Assembly (NCBI GenBank): GCA_964629395.1
Contig: CAZVTX010000115.1
Span: forward strand, 1 to 10,063
Direction: 5' to 3'
Length of the DNA: 10,063 nt
Source: an uncultured archaeon
GTDB taxonomy: Archaea > Asgardarchaeota > Lokiarchaeia > Sigyniarchaeales > SOKP01
Shown: in pieces, positions 264-6,110 of the stretch
Position numbering within the stretch: position 1 is the first letter of the stretch
Layout of the letters: the number at the start of each line of letters is the position of its first letter
Made by a program: the position numbers and the translations under genes
The notes under the pieces: model-generated
Databases searched by the model: none
What the model saw: only the letters and a program-made list of their open reading frames with translations
Told to the model about the DNA's origin: nothing

Positions 264-351
264 CAAAGTTTTCATCCAAAACAAGTATTACTTTTAAACT
301 TAATGATTTTATTATAATAAAGTTTAATTATTAGTATTTATTATTACTTCT

Positions 352-423: not shown

Positions 424-606
424 TCTCAACCGCATAAAAGGCTATTACGCCTAAACGCCGGAAGTTAAACTTGTGTGCGTTGCTGATAGTACTGCATTTG
501 CGATATGCGGGAAACAGCAAACTGTGAGCTTGCTCACGGTCATAGCACACGAGGATATACCCGGTCCCATCCCGAACCCGGAAACGTTTAATATATGCGG
601 TTGAGA
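424..606 (+). other. pre-5S processing unit: 13-bp leader/trailer helix, 6-bp helix and BHB-like motif enclosing the permuted 5S rRNA
   Basis: 424-436 (tctcaaccgcata) is the perfect complement of 594-606 (tatgcggttgaga). 452-457 (taaacg) pairs with 585-590 (cgttta). 458-461 (ccgg) pairs with 578-581 (ccgg). These are flanked by the bulges a582-a584 (3' strand) and a462-a463(-g464) (5' strand). 464-466 (gtt) pairs with 575-577 (aac). Confidence 0.7.
464..583 (+). rRNA. rrf: 5S rRNA, circularly permuted gene order (3' part - CUUG cap - 5' part)
   Basis: Rotated to start at 533, the sequence reads CUCACGGUCAUAGCACACGAGGAUAUACCCGGUCCCAUCCCGAACCCGGAA|GUUAAACUUGUGUGCGUUGCUGAUAGUACUGCAUUUGCGAUAUGCGGGAAACAGCAAACUGUGAG. 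This is a textbook archaeal 5S. Helix I is 521-528/533-540. Helix II is 545-553/470-478. Helix III is 561-564/578-581 with the AA bulge. Loop C is UCCCAUCCCGAAC. Helix V is 480-485/515-520. A loop-E-like AUAGUA/GAAA is present. Helix IV is 492-497/505-510. Confidence 0.85.
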
Positions 607-4560: not shown

Positions 4561-5082
4561 ATGCCCAAGAAGTTCATTTTAAAAATATTGACTGCGGGAG
4601 AGGGTGGTGTAGGCAAAACTACCTTACTCCATAGATATGTAGAGGGTAAATTCAGTACGGATACTAAAATGACTATTGGAGTGGAATTTTTCTTAAAAGA
4701 AATTACCATTGATGATAAACAGTGTACTTTACAACTTTGGGATTTTGGAGGACAAGAACGATTTCGCTTCTTATTGGAGAGCTATGTTTTAGGTGCTAAA
4801 GGAGCCTTATTAATGTTTGACTTAACCCGTCCTATGACACTTGACAATTTAGAAGAATGGGTTAATATATGCAGAAAATCGGATCCCGATTTACCAATTC
4901 TCTTTATAGGAACAAAATTAGATTTAGTCGATGAAATAATGGTAGATGACGATTATGCACTTCAATATAAAGAACATTTTAATCTATTCGATTACATGAA
5001 AGTATCGTCAAAAACAGGAGAAGGTGTTCAAGAGGCGTTTGAAAAATTAACGAGAAAGATTTTAGAGCGTCAGGCTTATTAG
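4561..5082 (+). CDS. Ras-superfamily small GTPase, Rab-like
   Basis: G1 is GEGGVGKT (4597-4620). The switch I region is TIGVEF (Rab-like). G3 is WDFGGQE followed by RFRFL. G4 is TKLD (4912-4923) instead of NKxD. G5 is SSK. There is no C-terminal Cys lipidation motif. Confidence 0.9.
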   Translation: MPKKFILKILTAGEGGVGKTTLLHRYVEGKFSTDTKMTIGVEFFLKEITIDDKQCTLQLWDFGGQERFRFLLESYVLGAKGALLMFDLTRPMTLDNLEEWVNICRKSDPDLPILFIGTKLDLVDEIMVDDDYALQYKEHFNLFDYMKVSSKTGEGVQEAFEKLTRKILERQAY

Positions 5083-5114: not shown

Positions 5115-5534
5115 ATTATTATAATTGATGCAAATTTTATTCTACTCCCTTTTCAATTTAAAATAGACTATTTTAATGAAATAAATTATCTTTTAGAGGG
5201 GTCAAAAGCTTTCATTTTATTCCAACAAATAATAAATGAATTAAATGCTAAAAAATTAAGGGAATCTAATTCAGAAAAATTTTTGAGGCAATTAGATTCA
5301 GGGATATCCTATTTGAATAAAATGAAAAATAAATTCAATGTAATAAATATTAATTTAATAAAAGAAGAAAATGAAACTACAGATGATTTTCTTATAAAAA
5401 AATGTAAAGAATTTCGGGAAAATTTCAATCGTGTATATTTAGCAACTAATGATTCAGAATTGCGTAAAAAAGCAAAAAAATCAAATATAAATGTAATATT
5501 TTTAAGACAGAGGAAATTTTTGTCATTAGAATAA
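5115..5534 (+). CDS. Fcf1/Utp24-like PIN-domain nuclease; start codon unresolved (no ATG/GTG/TTG upstream of the catalytic Asp)
   Basis: The frame is open from 5043 (after TGA 5040-5042) to TAA 5532-5534. It encodes ...FDNIIIIDANFILLPFQFKIDYFNEI...FQQIINELNAK...TTDDFLIKKC...VYLATNDSELRKKAKKSNINVIFLRQRK. These are the DxNF, ELxxL, DD and ATxDxxLR elements of Fcf1-type PIN domains. The track reports only the TTG-initiated C-terminal 83 aa (5283..5534). 5115 (ATT) is a guess, placed 8 nt after an aaggt at 5102-5106. Confidence 0.55.
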   Translation: MIIIDANFILLPFQFKIDYFNEINYLLEGSKAFILFQQIINELNAKKLRESNSEKFLRQLDSGISYLNKMKNKFNVININLIKEENETTDDFLIKKCKEFRENFNRVYLATNDSELRKKAKKSNINVIFLRQRKFLSLE

Positions 5535-5549
5535 TTTAATTACCGCTAA

Positions 5550-6110
5550 TTGTGTATTTTTGTGTATAGCCCCGGAAAAAAATTTAAAAAACCCATCGTT
5601 CTAAAAATTTTAACATTAGGAGAGGGAGGGGTCGGTAAAACTACACTCCTACATCGATATGTAGAGGGTAGATTTATTGATGGAACAAAAATGACGATTG
5701 GCGTTGAATTTTTTCTTAAATATTTAGATATTGATAATGAAAATTATGTTCTTCAGATTTGGGATTTTGGAGGTCAAGATCAATTTCGTTTTATTTTAAA
5801 GCCATATGCTAAAGGGGCTAATGGCGCCGTTTTATTATTCGATTTAACAAGACCCTTAACTTTACATAAAATTGATGAATGGGTTGATATTGCAAGGTCT
5901 CACGATAAAGATTTACCAATCTTATTTATAGGAACAAAATTAGATTTAGAAGATGAGATAATGGTTCATGACGATTATGCCCAAGAATTAATGAAAGAGT
6001 ATCATTTATTTGATTATATTAAAGTTTCATCTAAAACAGGTTATAATGTAGAGGCTGCTTTCGAAAAACTTGCACAAGAAGTCGTAAAACATTTAAAAAA
6101 TAAAAATTAG
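5550..6110 (+). CDS. Ras-superfamily small GTPase, Rab-like; paralogue of 4561..5082
   Basis: It carries the same motif set: GEGGVGKT, TIGVEF, WDFGGQD, TKLD, SSK. By eye it is roughly two-thirds identical to GTPase 1. There is no ATG; the candidate starts are TTG 5550 and GTG 5562. GTG gives MYSPGKKFKKPIVLKIL, which compares better with MPKKFILKIL in the paralogue. Confidence 0.85.
   Translation: MCIFVYSPGKKFKKPIVLKILTLGEGGVGKTTLLHRYVEGRFIDGTKMTIGVEFFLKYLDIDNENYVLQIWDFGGQDQFRFILKPYAKGANGAVLLFDLTRPLTLHKIDEWVDIARSHDKDLPILFIGTKLDLEDEIMVHDDYAQELMKEYHLFDYIKVSSKTGYNVEAAFEKLAQEVVKHLKNKN

Follow-up and report, generated by a model that had tools for sequence, protein, structure and literature searches.

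The question raised by the locus described here is how a working 5S ribosomal RNA (rRNA) could be made from a gene whose two parts stand in reversed order. The locus lies on the forward strand of a 10,063-nucleotide stretch of DNA (contig CAZVTX010000115.1 of assembly GCA_964629395.1, from an uncultured archaeon of the Lokiarchaeia), which is called the window throughout. 5S rRNA is universal, and in textbooks and recent reviews it is the sole archaeal rRNA that is not matured through circularisation at a motif known as a bulge-helix-bulge (BHB); the Asgard archaea, in which the present locus occurs, are the closest prokaryotic relatives of eukaryotes. The functional 5S gene is probably permuted, with its unit excised at a BHB motif and ligated, and the resulting circle is most likely the form present in the 50S ribosomal subunit.

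5S rRNA identity of the rotated gene

Reading of the sequence and folding place a complete archaeal 5S rRNA of 120 nt, in rotated order, at positions 464-583 (+). The first part (464-528) consists of GUUAAAC, the 3' strand of helix II (470-478, paired with 545-553), helix V (480-485/515-520), loop E (AUAGUA at 486-491 and GAAA at 511-514), helix IV (492-497/505-510) around loop D (498-504), and the 3' strand of helix I (521-528). The second part (533-583) consists of the 5' strand of helix I (533-540), loop A (CAUA, 541-544, placed by fold and alignment), the 5' strand of helix II (545-553, likewise), and helix III (561-566/574-581, with A576 and C577 bulged) around loop C (567-573), followed by the AA bulge (582-583). 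The two strands of helix I form 8 bp, including U523-G538, and are capped by cttg at 529-532, so that 521-540 is a hairpin. When 533-583 is joined to 464-528 in that order, the minimum free energy (MFE) fold is the textbook 5S three-way junction with helices I to V. A preliminary description of this DNA had claimed that every archaeal 5S element is present in rotated order, and that an 8-bp helix I with one G-U pair is closed by a tetraloop; each coordinate was confirmed by reading and folding, and the helix I hairpin also as an inverted repeat. The window is AT-rich (about 28% G+C), with an island of higher G+C content at approximately 440-600.

Nothing was found in the window by Rfam at its gathering thresholds or by ARAGORN over the whole length, and no 5S was detectable by Rfam at gathering in 113 kb of homologous loci. 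A permissive Rfam search in genomic order returned only helix III and loop C with the AA bulge (558-584, corresponding to positions 26-52 of the 5S family RF00001) at 24.6 bits, compared to a gathering score of 38 bits; the matched sequence, UACCCGGUCCCAUCCCGAACCCGGAA, agrees almost perfectly with those model positions. No match to the permuted mitochondrial family mtPerm-5S was present in the window among the permissive results.

The rotated order was compared with rotated canonical genes. Model R1 was made from 16 canonical 5S genes of non-Asgard origin (3 from haloarchaea, 12 from bacteria and 1 from an unidentified metagenome contig, L029; confirmed by Rfam at 73-103 bits), which were rotated in silico at the AA|G of helix III and given a helix I closed with GAAA. 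R1 matched the window from end to end of 464-583 at 73.7 bits (E 5.9e-15), a score of which the loop C part is not independent, since the training genes were picked by patterns in loop C or by their resemblance to the window, whereas the parts contributed by helices I, II, IV and V are independent of retrieval. Homologous loci with the same break point (type A, below) scored 41-69 bits. The matched control R2, made from the same 16 genes unrotated, matched only 23 nt of the window (561-583) at 24.9 bits, compared to 92-125 bits for canonical genes. The preliminary description had expected that the rotated order would score as 5S and the unrotated locus would give only partial matches; the test was run in reverse, by rotating the training genes rather than the window, and both expectations held. 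The rotated sequence also aligns collinearly across its junction (blastn, query 6-85) to Rfam-confirmed 5S genes on rRNA-bearing replicons. The sub-threshold score of RF00001 is due to gene order only, and the 5S identity of the locus is far beyond chance. Two traits of the RF00001 family are likewise present: the consensus geometry of helices I to V in the MFE fold of the rotated sequence, the R1 alignment and the pairing of homologs, and loop C with helix III, AUAGUA/GAAA and CAUA, all of which are kept among homologs.

No other rRNA was found by Rfam scans in the window or in the 19 kb of a homologous locus (L105), which places the 5S locus outside any 16S-23S(-5S) operon, as a stand-alone unit between protein-coding genes.

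A putative bulge-helix-bulge at the ends of the gene

Complementary sequences flank the 5S unit. The outer processing stem is a perfect helix of 13 bp, of which the 5' arm UCUCAACCGCAUA (424-436, +, 13 nt) is 100% complementary to the 3' arm UAUGCGGUUGAGA (594-606, +); it was recognised as an inverted repeat and in the MFE fold of the precursor, and stems of differing sequence are formed by leader and trailer at other loci too. A long helix formed by the flanks and containing a BHB is a trait of the processing stems of archaeal pre-16S and pre-23S rRNA. The BHB is the recognition element of the archaeal tRNA-splicing endonuclease. By definition its central helix (H) has 4 bp, a bulge of 3 nt interrupts each of the two strands, and the helices at either side (h and h') are longer than 2 bp (PMC3978253). 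In the window, putative helix h pairs UAAACG of the leader (452-457, +) with CGUUUA of the trailer (585-590, +), and putative helix H pairs CCGG of the leader (458-461, +) with CCGG at 578-581 (+), which is the 3' strand of helix III in the mature fold. The two 3-nt bulges lie on opposite strands, as A462 A463 G464 (bulge A, AA|G) and A582 A583 A584 (bulge B, AA|A). The cut rule and comparison among loci predict cleavage between the second and third nucleotides of each bulge, at 463|464 and 583|584, which would release exactly the 120-nt unit 464-583; joining A583 to G464 gives ...CCCGGAA-GUUAAAC..., the canonical succession of helix III, AA bulge and loop B. The ends of the gene had previously been placed between the AA bulge and the GUUAA of helix III, and the predicted cuts fall exactly there.

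The polarity of the BHB was re-derived from the geometry of introns at tRNA position 37/38, which led to a corrected cut rule that was borne out in three independent contexts (below). Several candidates were discarded. A central helix AACG/CGUU with bulges 5' of the helix strands was rejected, as its product would carry 11 extra nucleotides, and none of seven possible cut registers around CCGGAA under the bulge-5' polarity fitted a BHB. The apparent duplication of CCGGAA at the two ends of the unit is an illusion that arises from the palindrome CCGG: loci L003 and L112 have CUGG in the leader and CCAG in the 3' strand. Cleavage after the first bulge nucleotide was also rejected, because it gives non-conserved sequence in L112, in L108 and at the intron of L108.

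Conservation and compensatory change among homologous loci

The locus was found on about 28 contigs from independent assemblies, of which 5 were matches in the GTDB genome collection, 8 came from metagenomes and about 15 were retrieved by protein-guided searches. These contain 16 distinct complete 5S sequences and a truncated one (L119), with 14 distinct BHB contexts. The pattern of permuted order matched five GTDB species representatives (L003, L004, L005, L008 and L010), four of them labelled Promethearchaeota and one labelled 'uncultured archaeon'; the other five matches in GTDB were bacterial chance matches and were discarded. We take the Promethearchaeota of these contigs to be the Asgard/Loki group. 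In the NCBI lineage, Promethearchaeota is a phylum under the kingdom Promethearchaeati. The window corresponds to JGI contig Ga0366834_1004584, which NCBI labels 'Promethearchaeota archaeon'. A looser pattern applied to metagenomes gave about 90 loci, of which 8 were kept and about 80 were tandem or chance arrangements of canonical bacterial 5S genes, some of them reused for training R1 and R2. An open reading frame (ORF) of 175 amino acids downstream of the 5S unit (687-1214) is syntenic in all of the pattern-found loci at 35-48% identity, the range across the divergent genomes being 35-59%, and its homologs were used to fetch the more divergent loci. Synteny is not universal: five contigs (L114, L115, L116, L117 and L118) have a homolog of this ORF with no 5S upstream, and the 5S gene lies elsewhere in those genomes.

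Among 13 distinct aligned sequences, the 37 pairs of the 5S structure are 95% paired, compared to 33-39% when the partners are slid by 1-3 columns, and 17 of the 37 pairs (62 cells) are changed on both sides; the observed values were reached in 0 of 500 shuffles. Helix I is 100% paired in the 13 homologs, with three pairs changed on both sides, and helix III is also 100% paired; changes on both sides affect six of nine pairs in helix II, three pairs in helix V (98.7% paired) and four pairs in helix IV (97.4% paired). The loop that closes helix I has 4 nt in all 16 complete sequences and in L119, as CUUG, UUCG, UUUG, UACG or UUAG.

The predicted BHB is conserved in the same manner. Its four central pairs and three adjoining pairs are standard in 14/14 distinct contexts, with double changes from A-U to G-C among the adjoining pairs, and ten BHB pairs are kept at 91%, compared to 11-48% when slid, in contexts anchored on the predicted cuts (89% on a MAFFT alignment, which misplaces L003 by one column). 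Throughout the 14 contexts H has 4 bp, h has 3-6 bp and bulge B has 3 nt (as AA|A, AA|U, AA|G or UC|A), whereas h' has 2-3 bp in type A and is absent from type B, so that the motif appears near-strict in type A and relaxed (hBH- or BHL-like) in type B. L003 and L112 have U-A in place of C-G as the second central pair, and the 5' strand of helix III has changed together with it, a joint change that is expected if one 3' strand is contested by the leader and the 5' strand of helix III. The bulge bases that would be discarded vary (AA or AU in the leader, with AU|G in L112; A, U or G in the trailer), whereas those that would be retained are constant. The preliminary description had suggested that related genomes be checked for the same permutation and for compensatory changes, and both were found. 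These patterns indicate that the structure is under purifying selection and that the locus is not a relic.

Break points in loop C and an intron

A second permutation (type B), with the gene broken in loop C instead of helix III, is present in L108 (2731-2881), L123 (570-690) and the truncated L119 (1-97). The 5S of L108 (JGI Ga0366832_1000196, a contig of 225 kb) is nearly identical to that of the window, with a different break point. Type B loci share the leader and trailer of type A loci and have a matching BHB, the leader being ...AAAGCG-CCGG-AA|C CAUCUCGAAC... and the 3' end ...ACCCGG-UC|A-CGCUUU, with the CCGG of the leader pairing with the helix III 5' strand. The same cut rule yields GGUC|CCAUCUCGAAC (GGUC|CCAUC), which is the exact loop C. 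L108 also carries a 30-nt insert (2782-2811) in the region of helix IV and loop D with a strict hBHBh' motif (a central CUGC/GCAG between bulges AU|C and AA|U, flanked by two helices of 3 bp), and the predicted splice gives CUGCAU|UUGCGAU, the sequence of the intronless homologs. To our knowledge, no BHB intron has been described in a 5S rRNA gene.

The exact mature sequence is thus regenerated by one rule in three contexts: GAA|GUUAAAC in type A, GGUC|CCAUC in type B, and the intron of L108. It appears that 5S precursors of this lineage are substrates of the splicing machinery, at up to two sites per molecule. In a neighbour-joining tree of the flanking ORF (a weak tree of a short protein) the three type B loci do not cluster, which suggests repeated shifts of the break point. 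Such movement between relatives makes sense if ligation erases the break.

Proposed maturation and alternative explanations

In the pathway that we propose, a precursor of approximately 250 nt, a length deduced along with the promoter, would be transcribed from a TATA-like element upstream, and the leader and trailer, whose complementarity is evident in the sequence, would form a stem topped by the BHB. The leader CCGG would temporarily replace the helix III 5' strand, as pairing and covariation indicate. EndA, the tRNA-splicing endonuclease, would cut at 463|464 and 583|584, between nucleotides 2 and 3 of each bulge, and the ligase RtcB would join A583 to G464. If cut and ligated in this way, the 120-nt product would refold with helix III, the AA bulge and loop B continuous, as a covalent circle closed by the tetraloop, which would most likely be built into the 50S subunit. 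From the gene order, a normal 5S would form only if the excised piece is circularised.

Several observations weigh against this pathway. In the MFE fold of the precursor, the partner of the leader CCGG is the 5' strand of helix III and not the 3' strand; the fold constrained to contain the BHB has -71.1 kcal/mol, compared to -74.0 kcal/mol for the MFE fold, and at 2.9 kcal/mol above the MFE the BHB conformer is predicted to be energetically accessible. The bulge A side is not strictly canonical, as a G464-C577 pair can form in type A, which reduces the bulge to 2 nt and gives an h' of 3 bp, and type B loci are without any h'; this non-canonical side places demands on the endonuclease. A generic BHB finder returns many weak candidates of 4 bp plus 3 bp anywhere, at dozens per 200 nt, and only its conservation and position, together with an exactly restored product, make the BHB convincing. 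The cutting, the ligation and the uptake into the ribosome are all deduced from sequence, and about 2-19 kb around each locus was covered, so that a collinear 5S gene might exist elsewhere in these genomes.

The preliminary description had left open whether the RNA is circularised or acts as a permuted linear molecule; the presence of the BHB favours the former and disfavours the latter. A circle is favoured as the mature form for four reasons: because the helix I connector is a bare tetraloop of invariant length, in most cases UNCG/CUUG-like, that comes with neither a spacer nor a processing signal; because the break point differs between close relatives while the mature sequence is unchanged; because the nearest precedent other than tRNA stays circular (PMC4731332); and because E. 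coli ribosomes can function with helix I closed by a 4-nt connector (PMC7283268).

That the circle is an intermediate only, its helix I tetraloop being opened and trimmed to give a linear 5S, seems unlikely to us, although removal of a linker from a circular intermediate is the established pathway for permuted tRNAs (PMC3978253) and circular archaeal pre-16S and pre-23S rRNAs are generally thought to be re-linearised (PMC12918454). A connector that always has 4 nt, mostly of the UNCG/CUUG type, and caps the helix directly looks like the outcome of selection for a retained structural loop, the signal recognition particle (SRP) RNA of Thermoproteus, which is the closest precedent other than tRNA, stays circular (PMC4731332), and circular 23S rRNA has been reported inside ribosomes (PMC12918454).

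Another explanation is that the unit is cut or trimmed and never ligated, so that the ribosome would use a linear 5S that stays permuted, has its ends in helix III (in loop C for type B) and is held together by pairing. In brown-algal mitochondria the mature 5S keeps its permuted order (Valach et al. 2014, PMC4267664), and helix III could still form if the strand were nicked behind the AA bulge; we nevertheless judge this to be quite improbable, since fragments excised at archaeal BHBs (tRNA introns, pre-rRNAs and SRP RNA) are ligated by the same machinery, since the nick of type B would fall in loop C, the most conserved part of the molecule, and since a retained break should be constrained, yet it shifts between close relatives with unchanged mature sequence.

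A rearranged 5S pseudogene or relic, with a working collinear 5S gene elsewhere, would be compatible with the coverage of each genome by one stretch only, which leaves room for a second copy, but it is scarcely credible given that the layout is conserved with synteny and compensatory changes, by which a relic would not evolve, that 16 distinct complete sequences come from divergent genomes and the 13 aligned retain 95% of their pairs and conserve loops A, C and E, that the flanks hold a conserved covarying processing signal, an upstream motif and T-runs, and that a non-collinear gene in at least part of the Asgard group would fit the failure to predict 5S in two closed genomes of Heimdallarchaeum (PMC8813620).

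Relation to known permuted and circular RNAs

The circular 5S proposed here has its closest parallel in the SRP RNA of Thermoproteus tenax, in which a permuted gene and the splicing endonuclease give a functional circle (Plagens et al. 2015, PMC4731332). Both are universal structured RNAs of ribonucleoproteins, missed by annotation, with the halves of the gene swapped. The SRP RNA differs in its length (about 300 nt), in its occurrence in the hyperthermophilic Thermoproteales, and in that its circularity was demonstrated by RNA sequencing and biochemistry, whereas the 5S circle is predicted; two alternative break points among relatives distinguish the 5S genes from it. The permuted tRNAs of Cyanidioschyzon merolae and other algae and of Thermofilum pendens likewise have the 3' half upstream and a junction with a strict or relaxed BHB (Soma 2014, PMC3978253). 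The 5S locus has its 3' part upstream of its 5' part in one transcription unit, as in other BHB-dependent permuted genes. Permuted tRNAs mature via circular RNA, and some carry a BHB intron as L108 does (PMC3978253); unlike them, the 5S genes have nothing but a tetraloop between their natural ends, and no signal for its processing is evident.

In the mitochondrial 5S of brown algae and other stramenopiles, as in the window, helix I is not open but closed off as a hairpin (PMC4267664; Rfam family mtPerm-5S). That RNA is organellar, has its ends at the alpha/gamma three-way junction, is without a BHB, and is a linear permuted molecule (PMC4267664), whereas the ends of the present genes lie in helix III or loop C and the context is an Asgard chromosome (with genes for aIF1A, Spt5 and aIF2-gamma).

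Archaeal pre-16S and pre-23S rRNAs share with the 5S precursor a long stem formed by the flanks that contains a BHB, and they undergo the excision and circularisation by EndA and a ligase that are proposed for 5S; their circles may stay in the ribosome, and permuted 23S is found in Pyrococcus and Thermococcus (PMC12918454, PMC7758197, bioRxiv 10.64898/2026.03.23.713588). They differ in that the genes are collinear and their natural ends are joined, whereas the 5S would need a circle to create a helix that is split by gene order. A 2026 paper gives circularisation for archaeal 16S and 23S 'but not 5S rRNAs' (PMC12918454). Rare circular 5S from collinear genes has been noted in Sulfolobus, Pyrococcus abyssi and Halobacterium (PMC12558985; bioRxiv 10.64898/2026.03.23.713588); those molecules differ in being heterogeneous, without a BHB and from unpermuted genes, and were read as products of degradation or side reactions. 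That a closed helix I is tolerated is apparent from the circularly permuted 5S (cp5S) of E. coli, in which the ends were joined by a 4-nt connector, the molecule was opened in loop C or D, and the ribosomes were functional (Huang et al. 2020, PMC7283268), although cp5S is artificial, tethered into 23S, bacterial and not circular.

No description of a permuted or BHB-processed archaeal 5S was found by full-text searches of a literature collection with most subscription journals outside its coverage, which fits the suspicion in the preliminary description that an archaeal chromosomal 5S of this layout is undescribed. A permuted 5S is on record only from brown algae, as a linear mitochondrial RNA (PMC4267664). 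The mechanism, that of BHB-dependent permuted RNA genes, is known; what is new is its application to the universal 5S RNA, the alternative break points and the intron. Whether the case can be generalised to a Loki-type Asgard clade in which the sole 5S gene is permuted, the tRNA-splicing machinery produces the mature ribosomal 5S as a covalently closed circle of 120 nt, and the break has moved repeatedly between helix III and loop C, with a BHB intron in at least one lineage, is in our estimate evenly balanced. If true, this would be the first permuted 5S outside organelles, the first rRNA that depends on the tRNA-splicing machinery to restore its order, and probably the first naturally circular 5S in a ribosome. 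A universal rRNA would also have been missed systematically by annotation in part of the Asgard group: searches with RF00001, barrnap or tools of the RNAmmer type will report no 5S for such genomes, which affects quality calls for metagenome-assembled genomes and Asgard annotation. A 5S gene is required for 'high quality' under the Minimum Information about a Metagenome-Assembled Genome (MIMAG) standard. The sister genomes with different break points and an intron are an unusually clean natural experiment, in which it can be tested directly how permuted genes evolve and which substrates the Asgard EndA accepts.

In two closed Heimdallarchaeum genomes, the 5S 'could not be predicted' by any approach (Wu et al. 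2022, PMC8813620), and permuted 5S genes may explain this absence; some other Asgard lineages have a detectable 5S (PMC9723677). The Heimdallarchaeum report (PMC8813620) is also a lead that non-collinear 5S genes may reach beyond the Loki-type clade.

Transcription signals and genomic neighbourhood

A candidate archaeal promoter with a motif resembling the B recognition element and TATA box, AAAGTTTAATTA, is located at 319-330 (+). The pattern AAA[AG]TTT[AT]AT occurs upstream on the same strand in 13/13 loci examined, and at -137 to -149 from the predicted 5' cut in 11 of them, a conservation that points to a promoter role. The upstream gene is divergent, so this element could serve that gene instead, and another TATA-like stretch, at 399-406, could take its place. 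Archaeal transcription terminates at oligo-T, and the T-rich tract at 608-640 (+; T5, T4, T4, T6), with T-runs following the 3' arm of the processing stem in all loci examined, is a likely terminator. Between the TATA-like motif and the processing stem, the window has a conserved hairpin, ACUUAUAAU-C-AUUAUAAGU, followed by GGAUUUA (351-378), with equivalent sequence in L108, L109, L111, L010 and L004; it would be at or near the 5' end of the precursor.

The chromosomal neighbours of the 5S locus include genes for aIF2-gamma, aIF1A, Spt5 and GTPases of the Ras/Arf type. Two paralogous small GTPases of the Ras/Arf/Roc type (approximately 60% identical) flank a small ORF with a PIN domain (4561-5082, 5283-5534 and 5550-6110), and the GTPase pair is kept in L003, L005, L008 and L010. 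Such a pair is typical of Asgard gene content.

Variations on the layout were noted in several of the homologous loci. The L121/L122 locus (GCA_053584965.1; 816-936, -) has a permuted 5S unit that runs opposite to the syntenic ORF and has diverged further, with GCUAAGC, a loop C of GGACACAUUCCGAAC and a bulge B of AA|G; its BHB and processing stem are intact. L109 (approximately 2530-2950) has a spacer of about 490 nt between the 5S and the ORF, compared to about 115 nt in the window, that contains several units resembling CTCCC(G/A)GAGTC(C/A)ATAGG and may be left over from a leucine-rich-repeat gene. Loop C lacks one base (CCCAUCCGAAC rather than CCCAUCCCGAAC) in L109/L110, L123 and L124, which represent three lineages on several independent contigs, and this shortening is probably real and not a sequencing error. 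L124 has a permuted 5S of type A that is normal except for a 30-nt insertion (933-962) directly behind GUUAAAC; none of five possible registers gave a BHB for the insertion, which could be an expansion segment, an intron of another kind or an assembly quirk. On the unrelated contig L029, from a sulfate-methane transition zone, a 168-nt tRNA match (5339-5506, -), which implies a long intron, stands beside a canonical 5S gene (5673-5792, +) with an unusual helix IV/V region.

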